From: Candidatus Spongiisociaceae bacterium
GTDB taxonomy: Bacteria > Actinomycetota > Acidimicrobiia > Spongiisociales > Spongiisociaceae
Reading direction: 5' to 3'
Length of the DNA stretch: 64,000 nucleotides
Assembly: GCA_965219685.1 (NCBI GenBank)
Contig: CBDCOH010000002.1
Span: 3,072,001 to 3,136,000, forward strand
Numbering within the stretch: the stretch's first letter is position 1; the number at the start of each line of letters is the position of its first letter. The notes beneath the pieces were generated by a model that saw only the letters and a list, made by a program, of their open reading frames with translations, had not been told where the DNA came from and searched no databases. The position numbers and the translations under genes are program-made. This document shows positions 21,134 to 64,000 of this stretch, one piece after another.

Positions 21134-21360
21134 ACTCATACTTGTAGGGTCCTCCTCGGCTGGGGGCCGGGTCTGACCCACGCGAAAACTGGCGTTTGGT
21201 GCCTTTCCACGATCTGTCGACCTGGCCCTAGCCGGGAGCCCTGGACCGGGGAGCGGGGTGACCTAATAGGAGCCTTCGACTTCTCCACCATGAGTGTTCT
21301 GTCCGCCGCTCTGCCCGGCTCAGGGAACTTGGAATTGTAGGCAGCCGACGGAAGGCGGGC
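21134..21360 (+). ncRNA. Predicted bridge RNA of IS110-B2
   Basis: Target loop CGCGAAAAC (21181-89) and CCACGA (21207-12) match the flanks; donor loop ATAGGAGC and TGAGTGTT match the element ends. Confidence 0.75.
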
Positions 21361-22677: not shown

Positions 22678-22819
22678 CTATGAGGTCACATCCGCTCCGG
22701 GCTGGCTGCCCGTACCCCCCGACCGGTGCCCGGCCGACAGATCCGGGGTAAAAGGCACCACAGCCAGTTTCCCGGTGGGTCAGACCGGACCCCGGTCGAG
22801 GTCCCTTAAGTATGAGTGT
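22678..22819 (-). mobile_element. IS110-B left-end fragment (B3), orphan target-loop region
   Basis: Near-identical to the reverse complement of 58012-58152; truncated at the CTA of CTATGAGGTCAC. Confidence 0.8.
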
Positions 22820-23693
22820 TACCCCTGAGACTCAGGTGATTCGGCGACGCGGGTGGAGCTTCGCGCCGGTGGCGGCTGAGGCAATTTGTTGTGTCGGTGC
22901 CTATGGGGGTGTAGGGGGTGAGTACGGCGTTGGCGCCTGCGATGATGGACGCGCAGTCGGGGTGGGTGGGGTCCCCGGTCAGGTTGATCATTCGTATGAG
23001 CCACCAGGCGTACCAGCGGACTTCGATCTCTCCGCCCATGTCGCGTATGTCTTGGGCTGAGGACACTCCGAGGTCGGTTAGGGCCTGGTTGAGTTCGGCT
23101 TCGGTGTGGGGTCGGAAGGTGTCGTCGGTTCGGGGAGGGTATTGTCCGGGTCCGTGGTGGGGTTCCCAGCCCGGGTTTTCTAGGGCGAGGGCTATGAGTT
23201 CGTCGTGGGCTGTGAGGTAGTGGAAGGTTGAGCCCCACCAGCTGTACCAGTTGGGGTTGTCGATGAGTTCGTACTTGAGGGTGTCGTTGCATGCGGTGGC
23301 TTCGAGACCGGCTCTGCTGGCGGGCATCCGGTCGTCCCATGCGGGGTGGCTGGATCGGCGCAGGTAGTAGTCCCATTCCATTTGGGCCAGGGTGGTGCTG
23401 GTGGTCGGCTGGGTGGTCGGGGTTGTGGTGGTGGGGGTCTGTGCAGAGCGGGTGTCTTCTGGTTCGGGGGGTGGAGCGAGGGTCGTGTCGGTGACCGGCA
23501 CGCCTCGTGTTGAGCCGTCCGTGCCGGCGGGTGCTGTGCTGTCGGTAACCGCGAGGCTGGTCGCGGTGGTTGCGTTGGTGGTGCCCACTCGTTGGTTCTG
23601 GGCGCCCATCGCGGAGACCACTGTCACCGCAACGACACCGACCAGGCCCGCAGCAACCAGCAGTATCCGGACGGTTGGGCCGGTTAACCTCAT
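22806..23693 (-). CDS. Membrane-anchored or secreted hypothetical protein with Thr/Pro linker (paralogue of 56642-57391)
   Basis: N-terminal hydrophobic helix, T/P-rich linker, conserved WDYYLRR..WYAWWLIRMINL domain. Confidence 0.75.
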   Translation of the reverse strand: MRLTGPTVRILLVAAGLVGVVAVTVVSAMGAQNQRVGTTNATTATSLAVTDSTAPAGTDGSTRGVPVTDTTLAPPPEPEDTRSAQTPTTTTPTTQPTTSTTLAQMEWDYYLRRSSHPAWDDRMPASRAGLEATACNDTLKYELIDNPNWYSWWGSTFHYLTAHDELIALALENPGWEPHHGPGQYPPRTDDTFRPHTEAELNQALTDLGVSSAQDIRDMGGEIEVRWYAWWLIRMINLTGDPTHPDCASIIAGANAVLTPYTPIGTDTTNCLSRHRREAPPASPNHLSLRGNTHT

Positions 23694-55809: not shown

Positions 55810-56300
55810 GGGGGCCTGCCAGTGGAATCACACACCGGCTTGTCGCAAGGGTACAAGCGGAAACAACAAGCGGATCCCTCGGAAAGTAGCCGCTTCTATG
55901 TTTGTCTGGTCGTGCTCGGTGTTTAGCGTTTGACGTAGCGGGGCTTCTCTGGGGGTCTACCCTGCGGTGGTTCCCTAGGCGACATAGACCCTTGTTGTTG
56001 GGACAGCGACGGGCGCTGGCGAAGCGAGGCTGTGGAGGGCTCCCATCAACTCGCTGGCTCGTCCGGTCATCGCCAGTTCGGTCTCCAACTCGACGATCCG
56101 ACGAGCAGCCCTCGTTTCCTCCTCCTCCGAAGACGCCAGACCGGCTGCAGTCCAGCGTCAACAATACCCCGGCGTCGCCACCTGTAGACGGTATGGTCGG
56201 ATACACCAAGGTCAACTGACACAGAAAATCAACGACCTGCCAGCGGCCAACAGGTCCGAACCTCGCGGGGACTCCGGCGGATACCGATTCCGTATGAGAC
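55810..56300 (-). pseudogene. Highly degraded IS3-like orfA/orfB remnant
   Basis: Fragments RRIVELETELAM..ASELM and RSGYF in shifting frames. Confidence 0.35.
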
Positions 56301-56641
56301 CCCTCCTCTTCGGTCAGCACAACACCAGATTCGAACATGCCGAGTCCACGAAACTGGGTATCACCTGAGGTTCACCACACCGGGTCAACCTCATAGTTGA
56401 TCCCCGGTGCGCAGATCCTGCGCCCGCCAGCGTCTTAGCGGCTCATCCGTCCGTGGAGGGTCGACTCGGTACCTCGTAGGACCGACCACAGTGTGAGCGC
56501 TCCTGGGTGTCACGTCACCACCCCGCGATCCGAGCGTCCGGTACCTAGGCTGCTGCCGGTTCGCTTGGTCGGCGGGTGTAGCTTCGCGCCGGTGGCGGCC
56601 GAGGCAAGTTGTTATGTGGGTGCCTATCGTGTGGTGGGAGT

Positions 56642-57391
56642 TTAGGGGGTGAGGACGGCGTTGGCGCCTGCGATGATGGACGCGCAGTCAGGGTGGGTGG
56701 GGTCCCCTGTCAGGTTGATCATCCGTATGAGCCACCAGGCGTACCAGCGGACCTCGATCTCTTCGCCCATGTCGCGTATGTCTTGGGCTGAGAACACCCC
56801 GAGGTCGGCTAGGGCCTGGTTGAGTTCGGCTTCTGTGTGGGGTTGGAAGGCGTCGTCGGTTGGAGAGGGGTATTGTCCGGGTCCGTGGTGGGGTTCCCAG
56901 CCCGGGTTTTCTAGGGCGAGGGCTATGAGTTCGTCATGCGCTGTGTAGTAGTGGAAGGTTGCGGCCCACCAGCTGTACCAGTTGGGATTGTCGATCAGTT
57001 CGTACTTGAAGGTGTCGCTGCATGCGGTGGCTTCGATACCGGCCCTGCCTGCGGGCATTCGGTCGTCCCATGCGGGGTGGCTGGCCCGCCGCAGGTAATA
57101 GTCCCAAGCCACTTGGCCCGGGGTGGTGGTCGGGGGATCCTCAGAGCGGGTGTCTTCTGTTTCGGGGGGTGGAGCGAGGGTCGTGTCGGTGACCGGCACT
57201 CCCCGTGTCGAACCGTCCGTGCCGGCCGGTGCTGTGCTGTCGGTAACCGCGACGCTGGTCGCAGTGGTTCCTTTGGTGGTGCCGTCTCGTTGGCTCTGGG
57301 CGCCCATCACCGAGCCCAAGGTCACCGCAACGACACCGACCAGTCCAACAGCGGCCACCAATGCACGGACCGTTGGGCCGGCAACCGTCAC
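56642..57391 (-). CDS. Membrane-anchored hypothetical protein (paralogue of 22806-23693)
   Basis: Long near-identical protein segments; probable GTG start by homology. Confidence 0.75.
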   Translation of the reverse strand: MTVAGPTVRALVAAVGLVGVVAVTLGSVMGAQSQRDGTTKGTTATSVAVTDSTAPAGTDGSTRGVPVTDTTLAPPPETEDTRSEDPPTTTPGQVAWDYYLRRASHPAWDDRMPAGRAGIEATACSDTFKYELIDNPNWYSWWAATFHYYTAHDELIALALENPGWEPHHGPGQYPSPTDDAFQPHTEAELNQALADLGVFSAQDIRDMGEEIEVRWYAWWLIRMINLTGDPTHPDCASIIAGANAVLTP

Positions 57392-57976
57392 CTGCCCTTC
57401 CGTTCCGCTGGGCGGCAACCGCTCCAACGAGTGCCTTGGTCGCATCCTAACCGATCTGCACCACTGTTCCGACACGGTTAGTGTAACCCAGCACACTGTA
57501 ACAACCCCGGAAAGGGTTTGTAATCCGTGCTGCCTACGTGTTGAAGTTGGTTCCGCTCTGCTCGGACCCCCGTCTGGCCCACGGGTGGGCAGTCAGCTCG
57601 GCTGCCGTCCCTAGCGACGTTGACCCCCTTTCGTGGACCCGCTTGTCCTTCTCCTCGTAGGCGGGATGGCGGAGGCGGTCATCGGCCTTGTGGATGGCTT
57701 GGCCGGCATCTGGCTGATACCGGTTTTGTTGATGGCGCACCCCCACGACTAGCCGGGTCCCCAGGTGCGGGAGGGGCTTATCTTGGAAGAGGTCAAGGTG
57801 TTCGACTGCGACCGGACGTTGGGCACCACAGCGGAGGAGCTGGCGCGCAGCGTGCAGTTCACCGTCGGTGTGCGAGTGGGCAGAGCCGGGTGTTGCGTAC
57901 CCGGGCCCGGTTCGAGACCTGGGCTGCCACGATCCGAATGGACGTGGATCCCGAACTGTTCGACCAGGAGCAGTTG

Positions 57977-58011
57977 TGAACCGCCCCGGGTTTGCCGGAG
58001 ACTCCGGGGGA
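57977..58011. repeat. IS3-type inverted repeat, left part of a 49-bp IR-IR remnant completed by 62361-62372
   Basis: TGAACCGCCCCGGGTTTGCCGGAGAC is the reverse complement of the IS3 end at 44865-44890. Confidence 0.8.
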
Positions 58012-58231
58012 ACACTCATACTTAAGGGGACCTCGACCGGGGTCCGGTCTGACGCAGCGGGAAACTGGCTGTGGTGCCTTACCCCGGATCTGTCGGCCGG
58101 GCACCGGTCGGGGGGTACGGGCAGCTAGCCCGGAGCGGATGTGACCTCATAGGAGCTTTGGTCGTTTCTTCCCCACACCCTGATGCTTCTATGTTGTGCA
58201 AATCCGGTGTTGGGGGTGGGGAGAGGTTCGG

Positions 58232-59305
58232 TTAGCCGCTGCCGGCGGGGGGTCCTGTATGGGTGTTGTGGTTGGGTGGGTTCTCTAGGAGCCGGTAGAG
58301 GTGGCGGGCGATGTAGCGTTTGAGGCAGCGTCGGGCTTCTCGGGGGGTTTTGCCTTCGGCGGTTCGTTTAGCGATGTAGGCCTGGGTCTTGGGGCAGGTG
58401 CGGGTGCGGGTGATGACGATGGTGTGGAGGGCTTGGTTGAGGGTTCGGTCGCCGTGGCGGTTGAGCCGGTGGCGGCTGTTTTGTCCGGAGGACGCCTCGA
58501 GTGGTGCTACGCCGGCGAGGCGGGCGAAGGCTGCTTCGTTACGGAAGCGGCCCCGGTGTGACCAGGCGACATAGATCTGAGCGGCGGTGATGGGTCCGAC
58601 TCCGGGCTGGTCAACCAGGTGGGGAGCGACTGTTTCGACGAGTTCGGCGATGAGCGCGGTTAGTTCGGCTATCTCGGTGGTGAGAGTCTTGATACGTCGG
58701 GCGACAGATCGCATGGCTGTCTTGGTGGCGGTGTGCTCGGTGAGGGTCCCGCCTCGGAGCCGGAATCTGTGGCACTTGGCGACCAGGCCAGCGGTGGTGA
58801 GGCCCCCGAGTTGGTCCCGCAGACCAACCGGTGCGGTTACTACCAGGGCTTTCAACTCGTTGATCGCCGCCACCCTGGCTGTTTGGGCTCCTCGGCGGGT
58901 GGTTTCCAACACTCGCAGCGCTTCGCGGTTTCCCCGAGCGCGGGGAACTGGCAGCCGACCACGGCCTAGGACCTGGCGGGCGGCCCGCCGTGCGTCGAGG
59001 GCGTCAGTCTTGGCGCCGTCGCGGGTCGGGGTGGGATCCCCGAACTCCACCACCCACTCACCACGGGCAGAAAGGTAGCCGGCCACGCCAGCTCCATAGC
59101 TGCCGGTGCCTTCCACAGACCACACCCGGTCACCTACCCGGGTGTGGGTGCCTGCCCATTCCAGCAGACGGTCGTAACCCACCCGGGTGGCGCCAAACAC
59201 CCCAGATGCCTGCTCTCCGGTGGTGGCAGTGTCCACCACCGACGCGGTGACCCGGTCCCGGTCAGGATCGATCCCGATCACGTGCTCTACCATCGTGGCC
59301 AACAT
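58232..59305 (-). CDS. IS110-family recombinase
   Basis: IGIDPD, VEGTGSYG, AKTDALDA, APLEASSG, HRLNRHGDR. Confidence 0.93.
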   Translation of the reverse strand: MLATMVEHVIGIDPDRDRVTASVVDTATTGEQASGVFGATRVGYDRLLEWAGTHTRVGDRVWSVEGTGSYGAGVAGYLSARGEWVVEFGDPTPTRDGAKTDALDARRAARQVLGRGRLPVPRARGNREALRVLETTRRGAQTARVAAINELKALVVTAPVGLRDQLGGLTTAGLVAKCHRFRLRGGTLTEHTATKTAMRSVARRIKTLTTEIAELTALIAELVETVAPHLVDQPGVGPITAAQIYVAWSHRGRFRNEAAFARLAGVAPLEASSGQNSRHRLNRHGDRTLNQALHTIVITRTRTCPKTQAYIAKRTAEGKTPREARRCLKRYIARHLYRLLENPPNHNTHTGPPAGSG

Positions 59306-59309
59306 AAGA

Positions 59310-59560
59310 AGACGCTCTCTTTCTTGTGCGAACTGGGCTATCGCCTCCTAAGGCGCAGACCGTGACGGCAGGACTGTGATGGGTCACACCCCGGACGGTG
59401 GACAAGCTTCTGATCAGGCCAGCAACGGAACGCCCAGGCGGCGCAGCGGCGGTGTCGGACGCATCACGGTAAAGACACAGAGGTCAGAGTGTTCTCGGGT
59501 CACGACCCCGCCGCTGACGCCAATCCTGGCAACCTCAACGAGACCCACCCGATACTCACA
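59310..59560 (-). ncRNA. Predicted bridge RNA of IS110-C
   Basis: Target loop GAACACTC / ACCGTGA inside stem agcggcgg..ccgccgct; donor loop AGAAGC / TCACAG matches its own ends. Confidence 0.75.
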
Positions 59561-59640
59561 GAGTGTTTTGTCCACCCGCTTCGGACCGGCGCTGCCGCAC
59601 AAATCCTATCCAACACAAGGAGAGGGGAGACACAGGGAGC

Positions 59641-60869
59641 ATGCCGGAACAAGACCAGGTCGATGTGTATGGAGGGGTTGATACCCATCGGGATATCCAC
59701 GTTGGAGCGGTGCTGGATCACACGGGTCGCCTACTGGGGTCAGAGGAGTTCAGGGCTGATGCGGCGGGATACGCGCAGCTGGAGGAGTGGCTCCGCTCCT
59801 GGGGGCAGCCGGTTCAGGTCGGTGTGGAAGGATGCGGTAGTTACGGCGCCGGCCTGGCTCGTTATCTGACCCGAGCCGACATCGAGGTGGTAGAAGTGAT
59901 GCGTCCCAACCGCCAGCTGCGTCGTCTCAGAGGCTGACACGGTCGACACCGAGGCTGCAGCCAGAGCTGCCCTCAGCGGAGATGCCACCGGGCGACCCAA
60001 AGGCGGGGACGGACCCGTAGAAGGGATAAGAATGCTTCGGATGGCTCGCCGTTCAGCGGTCAAAGCACGCACCCAGGCCGCCAACCAGATCCACGCCCTC
60101 CTCACAACCGCCCCTGAGCAGGTCAAACATCGGCTCCGGGACTCCAGTATCCAAGCGATGGTCAGAATCTGTGTCCGCTGGCGTCCCGGCGAAGCGCAGA
60201 CCACCACCGCGTACGCGAAAAAGGCGCTGCGGCACCTGGCCCGCCGATACCGGACCCTCGACACAGAAATAGCCGAACTCGACACCGACATCCGCCGTCT
60301 CTGCGCCAAGGCCAACCCGGCGCTCCTAGCCGCCTCCGGAGTGGGCCCCCACAGCGCTGCAGCACTCCTAGTCGCCGCCGGCGACAACCCCCAACGCATG
60401 AAATCCGAAGCGGTCCTTCGCGGCACTATGCGCCCTCAGCCCCGTCCAAGCATCATCGGGACAGATAGTTCGGCATCGGCTCAACCGAGGCGGCGACCGC
60501 CAAGCCAACAACGCTCTCTGGCGAATCGCCACCAACCGGATACGCACCGACCCCCGCACCATCGAATACACCCGCAGACGCAAAGCCGAAGGCAAAACCC
60601 GCCGCGAGATCATCCGCTGCCCCAAACGGCACATCGCCCGCGAGATCTACCACCTCCTAACCAAACCATCCCCAACACCCGACGGCAACGACCTCCGCCT
60701 CCAACGCCACCAAACCCGACTAACCCTCACCGACACCGCCGAACACCTCCAGGTCCACCCCACCCTCCTATCACTCCTCGAACGAGGCCTCCACCACAAC
60801 CACCAGCTCGCCACCCGCTACCAGAAATGGCTCACCGACCCGACCACAAAACCGATTTGCAAAACATAG
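59641..60869 (+). pseudogene. IS110-B recombinase with C-terminal HTH, frameshifted
   Basis: GGVDTHRDIH, VEGCGSYG; frame breaks near 59933 and 60410. Confidence 0.85.
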
Positions 60870-60889
60870 ACACCCCAGGAGCGCAAATG

Positions 60890-62110
60890 TCAAGCTGCGG
60901 CTTGGTCGAGGGCGGTTCGGTGTGCCCATGCGGTGTGTTCGTTGTAGGGGGTTCGGTGTTTGAGGCAGCCGTGGAGGATGCCGACGAGTCGGTTGGCGAG
61001 GGCTCGTAGTGCTTGGTGGTGGAGGTCGTCGGCTGCTCTTCGTTGGTCGTAGAACGCTCGGGCGCCTGGGCTGTTGTTTAGGGAACAGAACGCCCACTGG
61101 TCGAGGGCGTCGTAGAGACGCCGGTTGCGTATGTGGCGGGCGACCACGGCGTGTTTGCGGCCTGACGCCACTGTGACGGGCGACGTGCCGGCGTAGTTTC
61201 TGCGAGACTTGGCGCTGGTGTAGCGTTGGGGGTCGTCCCCGAACTCACCAAGCGCCCGGGCGCCGAGGACATTGCCGAGTCCTGGCTGTGAGAGGTAGAT
61301 ACCGGCGTCCGGGTGCTCCTCAAAGCGGGTTTCCAGGGCTGCTTCGAGTTCTGCGATCTGGCGGTTCAGTTCCGCAACGACGCTCACCAGCGCCCCCACA
61401 GTGGCCCCGTGTGCATCGGCGACCGGGCCGGGTGCGGCGAGCTGGGGGGTGCGGAGGCCTTTCTGGATTCGGCGGGCAACCTTGTCGAGGTTGCGTCTCC
61501 GGCCGGCGGCTTTGAGCGCGGCTCGGATCTGGGGCAGGGTCAGGCGGGCACCCCGGGTGGGGCTGGTTGCCCGGCCGAGTACAGCCAGGGTGTCGCGATG
61601 GGCCAGGTCATCAAAGGTTTCCAGCGCTGCGGGATAGTATCCTCGGAGCGTGTTGCGCATCTGGTTGGTGTGACGCACCCGGGCCCATTTCAGGTTCTGA
61701 TGTGTTCTCGCCAGTGCTTTGATCCCGTCGGCTTCGGGGCTGTCACCGGCCACGCTACGATGGTTGTGACGGTCGGTTCGTACCAGATCGGCTAACACCT
61801 TGGCGTCGCCACGGTCTGACTTAGCTCCTCCCAGGTGATGCCGGTCCCGGTAACGGGACACCGCCTTGGGATTGATCGCATACACCTGATAGCCCGCCCC
61901 GATGAGGGCACCAACCCAGAGGCCACGGTCGGTTTCGATGCCTACCACCACCTCGGCCGGCTCCGATGCGTGCTCGGCGACCATCTCATGCAAGCCGCCA
62001 ATCCCCTTGATCCCTTCCCGGAAACGAGCGAAACCCAGGCGGGCTCCGTAGGCGTCCATCAGATACACATCGTGGTGGCCCTCAGCCCAGTCGTTACCAA
62101 CAAAGATCAT
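60890..62110 (-). CDS. IS110-family recombinase
   Basis: 406 aa; VGNDWA, GIETD, AKSDRGDA, YAGTSPVTVASG. Confidence 0.95.
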   Translation of the reverse strand: MIFVGNDWAEGHHDVYLMDAYGARLGFARFREGIKGIGGLHEMVAEHASEPAEVVVGIETDRGLWVGALIGAGYQVYAINPKAVSRYRDRHHLGGAKSDRGDAKVLADLVRTDRHNHRSVAGDSPEADGIKALARTHQNLKWARVRHTNQMRNTLRGYYPAALETFDDLAHRDTLAVLGRATSPTRGARLTLPQIRAALKAAGRRRNLDKVARRIQKGLRTPQLAAPGPVADAHGATVGALVSVVAELNRQIAELEAALETRFEEHPDAGIYLSQPGLGNVLGARALGEFGDDPQRYTSAKSRRNYAGTSPVTVASGRKHAVVARHIRNRRLYDALDQWAFCSLNNSPGARAFYDQRRAADDLHHQALRALANRLVGILHGCLKHRTPYNEHTAWAHRTALDQAAA

Positions 62111-62114
62111 CCTT

Positions 62115-62350
62115 CGCCTCCTTCTCCGGGGATCAACTCTCTCCTGAGCTGTCGAGAACGCCTGGCGGCGACCTAATGGATCAGTGCTCTATGGCACGCC
62201 ACCCCATGAGCGCTACAAGCGGTCTCACCAACTGGCCGGGGCACGATCTATGTTCAGGAATCAGGTTCCAGGAGCATCCAGTACTCACCGGCCAGCCAGC
62301 TCAACCACCACACCCTCCCAGAAACACCAGAAGAAGTGGTGGACCCCCAT
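62115..62350 (-). ncRNA. Predicted bridge RNA of IS110-A3
   Basis: Guides GGATGCTCCT (62279-70) and AACATAG (62254-48) match the flanks; CCATTAG and TGGGGTG match its own ends. Confidence 0.78.
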
Positions 62351-62374
62351 TAGGAGCATCCGGGGCGGTTCAGA

Positions 62375-64000
62375 CCCGAGTTTGGCGGGTTGGGGGGCTT
62401 TGTGGGGGTGGTTGGTTCGCTGACCTGGGGTTTTGTGGTGTAGAACACCGTTCCGGTGCGAGAATGTAGGGGCGACATATCGTTGATTAGATGGGCTGTT
62501 AGTGGTATTGTTCTGGCCATGTTCGTAAAGACGACCCGCCGTCGCAGGGGCGACAAGGTTTACGAGTATTTGTCTTTGGTGGAGTCTTTCCGCCAAGGGT
62601 CGAAGGTCGGTCACCGGACTCTTTTGCGGCTGGGGGAGGTGACCGCTTTGCGGGAGTCCGGCCAGCTGGAACGGATCGTGGCCGCGCTGGAGCGTCATCT
62701 ACGCCGCGAACGTGTCGATGTGGGGGCGTTGGAAGCTGAGGGGGCGCCTGGGGTGGGGGCGGTAGCGGCGGTGTGGGCGGTGTGGCAGCGGCTCGGCCTC
62801 GACGAGTGGTTCGCTCAGGTCGGCGCTAGACGGGGCGCGAAGGCCTTGGAGCATGCGGTATTCGCGATGGTGGCCAACCGGTTGGTGGCACCGTGCTCGA
62901 AGCGGCAACTGGTTGAGTGGGCCGGGGCGGATGTGGTCATGCCCGAGGGCTGGTCGGCTCCGTCGATTGATCAGTACTACCGGGCCCTGGACGCGGTCGC
63001 CGCTTCCAAGGACGACACGGAGACACATCTGTATTCGCGGTTGTGCGACCTGACGAACCTGGACCTGCGGCTGGTTTGCTACGACCTCACTTCCACATAT
63101 TTCGAGGGTTCGACCCGCCCGTCTGGGCGTTTCCCATCCCGGGCGTTCGGTTACTCGCGGGACCATCGTGCTGATCGGCCCCAGATAGTGATCGGCCTGC
63201 TGTGCACCTCCGACGGGATCCCGATCGCTCATCGGGTGTTCTCGGGCAACACCGCCGATGTCATCACCCTGGCGGCAGTGTTGAGCGACCTGGCCGAGAG
63301 GTTCGCGGTGGGCCGTATCTGTGTGGTCGCTGACAGGGGCCTGATGTCGGCAGCCAACATCGAAGTGGTCGCCGAAGCCGGGTTCGACCACATATTGGCC
63401 ACGAAACTGCGTCGTGACCGTATCAGCAACCAAGCCCTTGCGGCCATCGACGACGACACCGTCTGGGTCGACATAGACCAGTACCGTTGCCGCGCCGCTG
63501 ATATCAGCCTCGAGGACGGCACCCGGGCGGTTGTGGTCGAGTCCGACGGCCGCGCCCGCCGAGACGCCGCCCGCACAGCCCACATCATCGCCGCGGCGGA
63601 GGCAAAACTGCGGGCGCTGGAGCTGCGCGTCCGCGCCGGCAAGCTGAAGGACCCCGCCAAAATCGGGGCGGCCGCGCAGCGTATCCTCGCCTCCGGCGGC
63701 GCCGGACGGCTCTTCGACATCGAGATCGGAGCTGGACGGTTTCTCTACCACTACAACGAAGACACCCACACATACGAAGAACTCCTCGCCGGTCGCTACG
63801 TGCTAGCCACAAGCCTCACACCCGCCCAGGCCCCCACCGCCCAAGTCGTGGACCACTACCGCCAACTGCAAGCAGTCGAGACCCGCTTCAGGGTCCTCAA
63901 AGACTTCCTGAGGCTCCGCCCCGTCAGGCACTGGACCGAACAACGAGTCCGCGGCCACGTCGCGGTCTGCGTCTACGCCGCCCTAATCGAAACCCTCATC
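62375..64000 (+). mobile_element. Second IS1634 copy, inverted relative to the first, runs off the window (transposase from about 62519)
   Basis: IR CCCGAGTTTGGCGGG; alternate-frame ORFs identical to those of 45014-46967. Confidence 0.92.

Follow-up and report, generated by a model that had tools for sequence, protein, structure and literature searches.

The window analysed here, a stretch of 64,000 nucleotides (nt) from a Candidatus Spongiisociaceae bacterium (contig CBDCOH010000002.1, positions 3,072,001 to 3,136,000; G000:C2:3072001-3136000 in the coordinates used below), contains an insertion sequence (IS) of the IS110 family, here called C, which lies inside another IS110-type element, B4, at the place where B4 would encode one of the guides of its own bridge RNA. 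B4 belongs to a family with several members in this genome (Ba, Bb, Bc, B4 and E1-E6), referred to as the B family. Recombination in the IS110 group is directed by a bridge RNA, as described for IS621 (PMC11208160, Durrant 2024; PMC11208158, Hiraizumi 2024), with a target loop addressed to the insertion site and a donor loop addressed to the ends of the element itself. It is highly probable that C is an active-looking bridge-RNA element whose target loop is programmed to recognise the DNA encoding the B-family right donor guide. The insertion is exact, it is oriented, and it recurs at the site that is encoded by the loop of C. All feature coordinates are collected in Table 1.

Consider first the junctions. 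On the plus strand they read CCCT-GA-TGCTTC (58178-58189) and CTCACA-GA-GTGTTTTG (59555-59570), and three uninterrupted copies of B in the same genome (C2:217198, 3021992 and 4232865), which are 95-96% identical to B4, run through one GA in ...CCCCACACCCTGAGTGTTTTGTCC.... Since these three copies carry a single GA, the insertion of C is exact and has a 2-nt core. A first-pass annotation of the window had placed C precisely within the right donor guide of B4, and there it lies: the GA core forms bases 2-3 of U-GA-GUGU. The copy to which that annotation had compared the restored site, under the name B2, is element E5 at about window position 21287, and it reads CCACCATGAGTGTTCTGTCC, in agreement with the comparison. 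The span given for C, 58140-59575, does hold the element, but it also takes in about 44 base pairs (bp) of B flank on one side and 15 bp on the other. A contig of run X1 joins 58181 to 59561 and omits 1379 bases, which confirms the length; it was considered as an excision of C and rejected, as nine other letters and four gaps on the B side assign it to other B copies.

The segment split by C is, as read from complementarity and covariation, the 3' side of the second, putatively donor-binding loop of the B RNA, that is, its right donor guide. It is so assigned because it is complementary to the start of the B left end and because it covaries with the junction core. The guide, UGAGUGU, is antisense to AC-ACTCA, which is the core followed by the left-end start, and both TGAGTG in the guide and CACTCA at the left-end start are invariant in an alignment of family members from six genomes (13/13). 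The bases of the guide that face the core change together with the junction core in nine of the ten elements that have a readable junction: GU stands with AC in five (Ba, E2, E5, G007_C16 and G006_C249), GG stands with CC in G012_a, b and c and in the host of L049, a relative of C discussed below, and the exception, G025_C40, has GU against a TC core. The two bases that come next (UU in B) are complementary to the end of the left flank, and such a handshake arrangement has been described for IS621 (PMC11208158). The closing stem of this second loop consists of 19 pairs, seven of them compensatory, with a covariation of 0.265 compared to 0.157 after shuffling, a value that none of 500 shuffles reaches, while the same stem when slid gives at most 0.096; the right donor guide lies five columns upstream of the closing GUC. 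When the whole B left end is folded, RNAalifold pairs the left-end start with the right donor guide, and this pairing is taken as complementarity between guide and DNA and rejected as RNA structure.

The target loop of C contains the description of this site. As guides of C we took the 9 nt that follow the GUGACCC scaffold and the 7 nt that precede GAUNNGUCCG, and read them in the same way in 11 elements of the C clade. The minus strand does carry the guides quoted in the first-pass annotation (AGAACACTC, 59487-59495; ACCGTGA, 59464-59470), and covariation across the relatives of C validates their proposed positions. On its 5' side the target loop repeats the left flank and the core in sense, and on its 3' side it carries the antisense of the core and the right flank. 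Over the 11 elements the left guide matches the left flank at 9, 9, 8, 8, 8, 8, 7, 7, 7, 5 and 3 of 9 positions, where the lowest value, that of L053, is read as a one-base register shift; non-cognate pairs of left guide and flank match at 3.57 of 9 positions on average (n=92). The right guide matches at 7, 7, 7, 6, 6, 6, 4 and 2 of 7 positions, with the complete matches in L050, L051 and L053. The stem closing the target loop has 17 pairs, of which 10 are changed on both sides when relatives of C and the B family are taken together, and its covariation, 0.316, compares to 0.163 after shuffling (reached in 0 of 500).

When the 14-mer predicted from the two guides is searched for in the whole genome, no perfect site is found and there are four unoccupied sites with one mismatch, all four of which are donor loops of the B family (E1, E2, E3 and E5); two mismatches are found at 14 sites, among them Ba, Bb and Bc. 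By our own arithmetic, 8.8 Mb of sequence, with both strands counted, should contain about 1.4 sites that differ from a 14-mer by one base or none. Chance is therefore excluded, since about 1.4 sites would be expected, four are found, and all of them are B-family donor loops.

The same genome has a second copy of C (C2:3051031-3052409), which is 99.6% identical to the first and lies at the homologous position of element E4. E4 and B4 are about 74% identical, and they are divergent up to both junctions, CCACCACCTT-GA and GA-GTGTTCTGTCCGCC. Two near-identical copies of C in old, diverged hosts therefore represent two separate, recent insertions at one site. Gene conversion as the route by which C has spread was rejected, for the flanks differ at the junction.

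The search for copies outside this genome covered 29 genomes from the same family and 401 from the same order. Close copies of C occur in G007, G022 and G024, and wherever a flank can be read it corresponds, in reverse complement, to a B-type non-coding end cut at the same position: G007 has B-type flanks on both sides, on two contigs, G022 has a B-type left flank and a copy of C that is cut after 215 nt, and G024, readable on the right-end side alone, is B-type there. A contig from run X6, a sponge metagenome, passes over the left-end junction into B-type flank, and contigs from run X7 pass over both junctions with 0 differences; X7 may be the same strain as the window. In metagenomes, a pattern scan for the start of the C left end gave 0 matches, and a protein scan gave relatives of 55-59% identity and one fragment of 74%, none of them in a B-type loop as far as examined.

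One could also imagine that C entered B only once, long ago, and that the composite was then spread by transposition of B, with functions supplied in trans, or by homologous recombination among copies of B. The B ends are in principle intact around C, so that mobilisation in trans is conceivable, and the X7 junctions are identical to those of the window, so that X7 may come from the same strain and is no independent source. The divergence of the hosts makes this history very improbable: the copies of C differ by 0.4% and their hosts by about 26%, also immediately beside both junctions, the bases adjoining the core differ from one host to the next in G007, G022, G024 and L049, and B4 and E4 stand in different surroundings. 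A still smaller probability is given to a mere pile-up of IS elements in an IS-rich island, with no guidance by sequence. The window is indeed crowded with IS110-type genes, and B4 has been struck by a further element, D, as well; a position that is the same to the base in diverged hosts, a fixed orientation, and guide matches that covary with their targets all speak against it.

More distant relatives of C, with 57-80% identity, were collected from Acidimicrobiia genome records. L049 occupies the corresponding place of a B-type loop, in a host that has CC as junction core and GG in its guide, and the left guide of L049 is altered to AGACCACUC, a 9/9 match to the host with its GG guide; core, host guide and inserted guide thus covary three ways. 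L050, L051 and L053 aim at other sequences, which their own guides match. L098, in genome G253, lies about 15 nt inside a B-type left end, antisense to its host, with a left guide that matches at 9/9, and L104, in G347, lies inside a B-type recombinase gene at the conserved RLNRGGNRQANNA motif, in sense orientation, with a left guide matching at 8/9. As a separate observation, a relative of C truncated at about residue 329 (L052:3484-3700) adjoins an unoccupied B-type donor loop, AAACAC-TC-ATGGTGG, an arrangement that may be the product of aberrant recombination.

Several observations weigh against a target loop programmed for B. The right guide of C never fits a B-family site perfectly: it matches 6/7 each time, with the fourth base mismatched. 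A copy of C with 98% identity in run X5, a marine metagenome, continues on each side into a loose end of 30 nt that is not B-type, and its site fits the left half of the guide at 9/9 and the right half at 4/7. L054, with guides like those of L049, sits in non-IS DNA that fits at 8/9 and 6/7. Only two of about nine B-family sites that have kept the guide are occupied by C in this genome. The left end of C, folded as a single sequence, is no more stable than its shuffles (z -0.74), and this fold, which has a long stem around a loop, is not distinctive. The donor-loop matches of C to its own ends are 6 nt each and leave the first core base unpaired. The decay of B4, finally, is no evidence that C was its cause, since the uninterrupted copies Ba and Bc have decayed too. 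That copies of C elsewhere go with B-type ends, the condition set in the first-pass annotation, is borne out by the flanks in G007, G022, G024, X6 and X7; with X5 and L054 in non-B DNA, the association with B-type loops is a strong preference and no exclusive rule.

Some of these points can be joined in a different explanation, according to which the true cognate of C is nearer to AGAACAC-TC-ACGGT and perhaps absent from this genome, while the B loops are near-cognate or half-match sites, with a left half that is abundant where B is abundant. The recurrent mismatch of the right guide and the non-B insertions X5 and L054 agree with such a cognate, in particular as the right half of the L054 site, TCACGGG, fits the guide as well as, or better than, the B-type sites, and insertion at half-matching sites has been reported for IS621 (10.64898/2026.08.31.748434). 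The explanation is nevertheless unlikely, for a C-type element with these guides occupies the same B-family position in six sources, B-family loops make up all of the four best unoccupied matches in the genome, and the left guide tracks the variants of the host, with AC core in some and CC core in others. A single mismatch has, moreover, a precedent, as the guide of IS621 is itself one base off its main natural target (PMC11208160).

With the target loop of C taken as programmed for the B-family guide, the following course of events can be proposed. The recombinase of C would be loaded with RNA from the 255-nt left end of C, by analogy with IS621, and C would, as IS621 suggests, be excised as a circle. 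In the circle junction a -35-like TTGCAC from the right end and a -10-like GAGTAT from the left end may form a promoter for bridge RNA and recombinase; the two would be spaced by 17 nt, by count, with the same geometry in B. Inspection by eye of the B flank 17 nt from the GAGTAT of integrated C revealed no -35-like hexamer. The bridge RNA would then pair with both strands of a 14-bp site, with recombination at TC, and on the strand opposite to B these 14 bases are the B right donor guide together with the two bases after it and the four loop bases before it. Recombination at the TC core would put C, always antisense to B, into U-GA-GUGU, and would thereby split the B bridge RNA in its donor loop and part the left end of B from its recombinase gene by 1.4 kb of antisense DNA. 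That copy of B is expected to be disabled in cis. The exact insertion, the guide matches, the recurrence in diverged hosts and other genomes and the covariation are observed here, and it is inferred that the RNAs are made and act in the way known from IS621 and that B is disabled. Because the B guide must pair with the B left-end start, it cannot drift freely, and this constraint therefore makes it a stable landing site in many copies that is harmless to the cell.

Element C itself was called intact in the first-pass annotation, and its reading frame of 357 amino acids (aa), both Pfam domains, the alignment with known recombinases and the 99.6% identical second copy all agree with this. The N-terminal DEDD RuvC-like domain, PF01548, scores 45.2 bits (cutoff 29) over residues 10-155, and the C-terminal Tnp domain, PF02371, scores 68.6 bits (cutoff 21.3). 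In the alignment with the recombinases of ISCro4 and IS621, the IGID, E, D..D and SG positions are all retained, and the SSG of C is aligned to the ESG of ISCro4; its serine is putatively the catalytic one, by comparison with S241 of IS621. A long non-coding end of 255 nt precedes the gene and a short one of 48 nt follows it. Judged by reading, with no tool scan for terminal inverted repeats, neither of the ends (TGTGAGTAT.. and ..ATAGAAGCA) is an inverted copy of the other. The two domains, the layout of the ends and the 2-nt core at the junctions place C in the IS110 group; the arrangement of the IS1111 group, with the guide RNA downstream of the gene, is not found, as only 48 nt lie past the stop and the guides lie upstream. 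An Rfam scan of 56000-64000 gave no match to a bridge-RNA family, and its single hit, Ms_AS-4, lies inside D.

C had further been described as a second, unrelated recombinase lineage. It is distant from D, to which it has 24% identity in the C-terminal part alone, but it is not unrelated to its victim, for the recombinases of C and B are 43% identical across 340 aa. They also have the RNA scaffold in common and the sequence of the right end, ..TTGCACAACATAGAAGCA-TC in C and ..TTGCAAAACATAGGAGCA-TC in the B family. By recombinase, scaffold and right end, C is thus a cousin of the B family.

Table 1. Positions in the window of element C, the parts of its host B4, and the neighbouring element D.
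Feature	Position	Strand	Basis and remarks
Element C, IS110 family	58184..59560	minus	1377 bp without core copies; bounds from three empty B sites and motif coordinates
Core dinucleotide GA (TC in C orientation), C right-end junction	58182..58183		Empty sites with a single GA
Core dinucleotide GA (TC in C orientation), C left-end junction	59561..59562		Empty sites with a single GA; two placements possible for the joint 58181->59561
C recombinase gene, 357 aa, intact	58232..59305	minus	Open reading frame; Pfam PF01548 and PF02371; PDB relatives ISCro4 (9t56) and IS621 (8wt6)
C left non-coding end, putative bridge-RNA gene, 255 nt	59306..59560	minus	Scaffold common to relatives and B family
C right non-coding end, 48 nt, terminus ..TTGCACAACATAGAAGCA	58184..58231	minus	Homologous to B-family right end ..TTGCAAAACATAGGAGCA
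C left target guide AGAACACUC	59487..59495	minus	Left flank 8/9 here, 9/9 at copy 2; position covaries across relatives
C right target guide ACCGUGA	59464..59470	minus	Predicts TCACGGT; flanks TCAGGGT (here) and TCAAGGT (copy 2) both fit 6/7
C left donor guide, candidate AGAAGC	59406..59411	minus	Same sense as C right end ..AGAAGCA; homologous to B CAUAGGAGC
C right donor guide, candidate UCACAG	59374..59379	minus	Antisense of left-end start C-TGTGA; same loop position as B UGAGUG
B4 left end, 5' part of putative bridge-RNA gene, from left-end start ACTCATACTT to split right donor guide	58014..58183	plus	Empty target sites
B4 left target guide GCGGGAAAC	58057..58065	plus	Covaries with left flank
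B4 right target guide CCCCGGA	58082..58088	plus	Antisense of right flank TC-CGGGG; E type CCCACGA, flank TC-GTGGG
B4 left donor guide CAUAGGAGC	58148..58156	plus	Same sense as B right end
B4 right donor guide, 5' piece UGA	58181..58183	plus	Split from the 3' piece by C
B4 right donor guide, 3' piece GUGU with handshake-type UU	59563..59568	plus	Antisense of AA-AC-AC at integrated left junction
B4 recombinase pseudogene	59641..60869	plus	5-nt deletion and 1-nt insertion relative to other B copies; D cuts at ..CAAAACATAG
Element D, different IS110 lineage, 406 aa, in B4 right end (context, not part of C)	60870..62349	minus	24% identical to C, in the C-terminal part alone

The limits of the host elements follow from their own targets. 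The B-family element starts with ACTCATACTT and ends with ..CATAGGAGCA-TC, because real empty target sites fix these ends. The empty site of E, GAGGCTTCGCGAAAAC joined to GTGGGGTAGGG, occurs twice with 0 mismatches, and that of B, GAGTCTCCGG(A/G)GAAAC joined to CGGGGCGGTTCA, is a repeat present in more than 20 copies (among them C2:3159439, 1235610, 3067092, 3665755 and 4353571, and window 57950-58013). By the exact right end of C and the empty sites, the left-end start of B falls at ACTCA..; the left junction then carries AC and the right one TC. A boundary at CATA, where both junctions share 4 nt, was rejected, with no empty site within four mismatches, and so was a B bridge RNA antisense to the gene, in which only one of three segments would fit. 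The left target guide follows the left flank: B has CGGGAAAC with flank CGGGGAAAC, and E has CGCGAAAAC with flank CGCGAAAAC. Among the uninterrupted copies, Ba and Bc have premature stops and Bb alone is intact (410 aa).

Further observations concern the B family and its sites. Copies of B and E with readable flanks (e.g., C2:217357/215882 and 3057216/3058688) always have AC at the left junction and TC at the right, and the first core base seems not to be homogenised by recombination. Some copies of the B-target repeat stand in pairs, about 1297 bp from each other, like the two ends of another small element, and there may be three tiers of nesting, the repeat, then B, then C and D. The left target guide of E4, UUGACAAAC, is identical to the right end of the E family, as though E4 had been programmed for insertion beside resident relatives, and the right end of E6 is joined directly to the left end of E4 in tandem (C2:~3052570-3052620). 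A B-type left-end fragment in the window (22678-22820, minus strand, 99% identical) breaks at CTCATAG within the left donor guide, and the DNA beyond it leads into the right flank of E5. Elsewhere, a degenerate B-type left end (C2:1705684-1705831, 85% identical) stops where C inserts in other copies and is followed by unrelated DNA, with no C.

Element D has cut the right end of B4 after ..CAAAACATAG, and B resumes as TTAGGAGCATCC at 62350. The RNA region in the left end of D contains GGAUGCUCCU, which has the sense of the left flank, and AACAUAG, which is antisense to the right flank; from these stretches D appears to be programmed for the antisense strand of the B right end. A D-type end also adjoins the left donor guide of E3; besides 60870-62349, the window positions for these observations are about 47128 and 11480. 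The first-pass annotation had another recombinase hitting the B4 RNA at its other guide, and this part of it does not stand: D sits in the right DNA end of B4 and not in the left donor guide. The Actinobacteria small RNA Ms_AS-4 of Rfam is matched at 61208-61289 on the plus strand (80.7 bits, E 1e-11), antisense within the recombinase gene of D.

It is possible, and we put it forward tentatively, that the C clade is a specialised parasite or competitor of its sister IS110 clade, with a target loop that has been turned on B-type elements and that tracks their variation. This reading is supported because C and L049 both strike the right donor guide, because the left guide of L049 has changed together with the core-pairing bases of its host, because the relatives in G253 and G347 strike a B-type left end and a B-type recombinase gene, and because D strikes the B right end and adjoins the left donor guide of E3. 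C may aim at B in competition, or because B offers a constant and harmless site in many copies.

The closest known system is IS621 (PMC11208160; PMC11208158). Like IS621, C combines DEDD and Tnp domains with a putative gene for a non-coding RNA, located in the left end and upstream of the recombinase gene; 9 nt on the 5' side of its loop repeat the left half and the core in sense, and 7 nt on the 3' side are antisense to the core and the right half; each junction has a 2-nt core; the left half of the target is paired, in a handshake-like way, with the bases that follow the right donor guide; and -35-like TTGCAC and -10-like GAGTAT lie in the right and left ends. Unlike IS621, C has only weak protein similarity to it (E 2e-9, in the C-terminal part alone), its core is TC instead of CT, the core pairing of its donor loop looks imperfect, and its target is the guide DNA of another IS110 element instead of a repetitive extragenic palindromic (REP) element. 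A second precedent is the landing of IS1111-type elements in the ends of Tn21-type transposons (PMC11187229), where, as with C, a DEDD-type element has a fixed target in a constrained sequence of another mobile element, which the constraint keeps conserved, and the victim is expected to be crippled. In that case an unrelated transposon is struck at a DNA end that binds protein, where C strikes a sister IS110 lineage in its guide-encoding DNA, and the RNA of the IS1111 group lies downstream of the gene, while that of C lies upstream. Site-specific insertion of IS110-type elements is also described for the IS1111-attC group and for the REP-targeting ISPa11, ISPpu9 and ISPpu10 (PMC11187229). C resembles these in being specific for multi-copy, structured and non-essential repeats, and differs from them in that their targets are repeats of the host or of integrons and not the guidance machinery of a competitor. 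Local expansion and tandem insertion at loci already occupied by IS110 elements (bioRxiv 10.64898/2026.08.14.744561) is similar in that insertion recurs where IS110 elements reside, and the E6-E4 tandem fits it, but the parts of that work drawn on here deal with tandem and half-site events of the same element and contain no match across lineages between a target loop and a donor loop. A literature search that covered papers, but not the supplementary target tables of PMC11208160 and PMC11187229, found no report of an IS110 target loop matched to the bridge-RNA gene of another element.

The known targets of bridge RNAs are host repeats such as REP, and here the loop is very probably aimed at the donor-guide DNA of a related element. 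C and B would thus be a natural example of RNA-guided elements that target each other's guidance machinery, where the target is kept constant by the self-recognition of the victim. Questions are thereby opened about competition between IS110 lineages, about the constraint that a guide gene puts on escape, and about the tolerance of mismatches in the right guide. The insertion of C also explains, for annotation, the split non-coding ends of several B copies in this genome, and the poorly studied Acidimicrobiia provide natural pairs of guide and target, with TC/AC cores and handshake-type pairing, outside the E. coli model. If the C clade is indeed a competitor of the B clade, guide-encoding DNA and element ends would be an Achilles heel, as a mutation that escapes the attack costs self-recognition, and arms races between bridge-RNA elements would shape their repertoires of guides.

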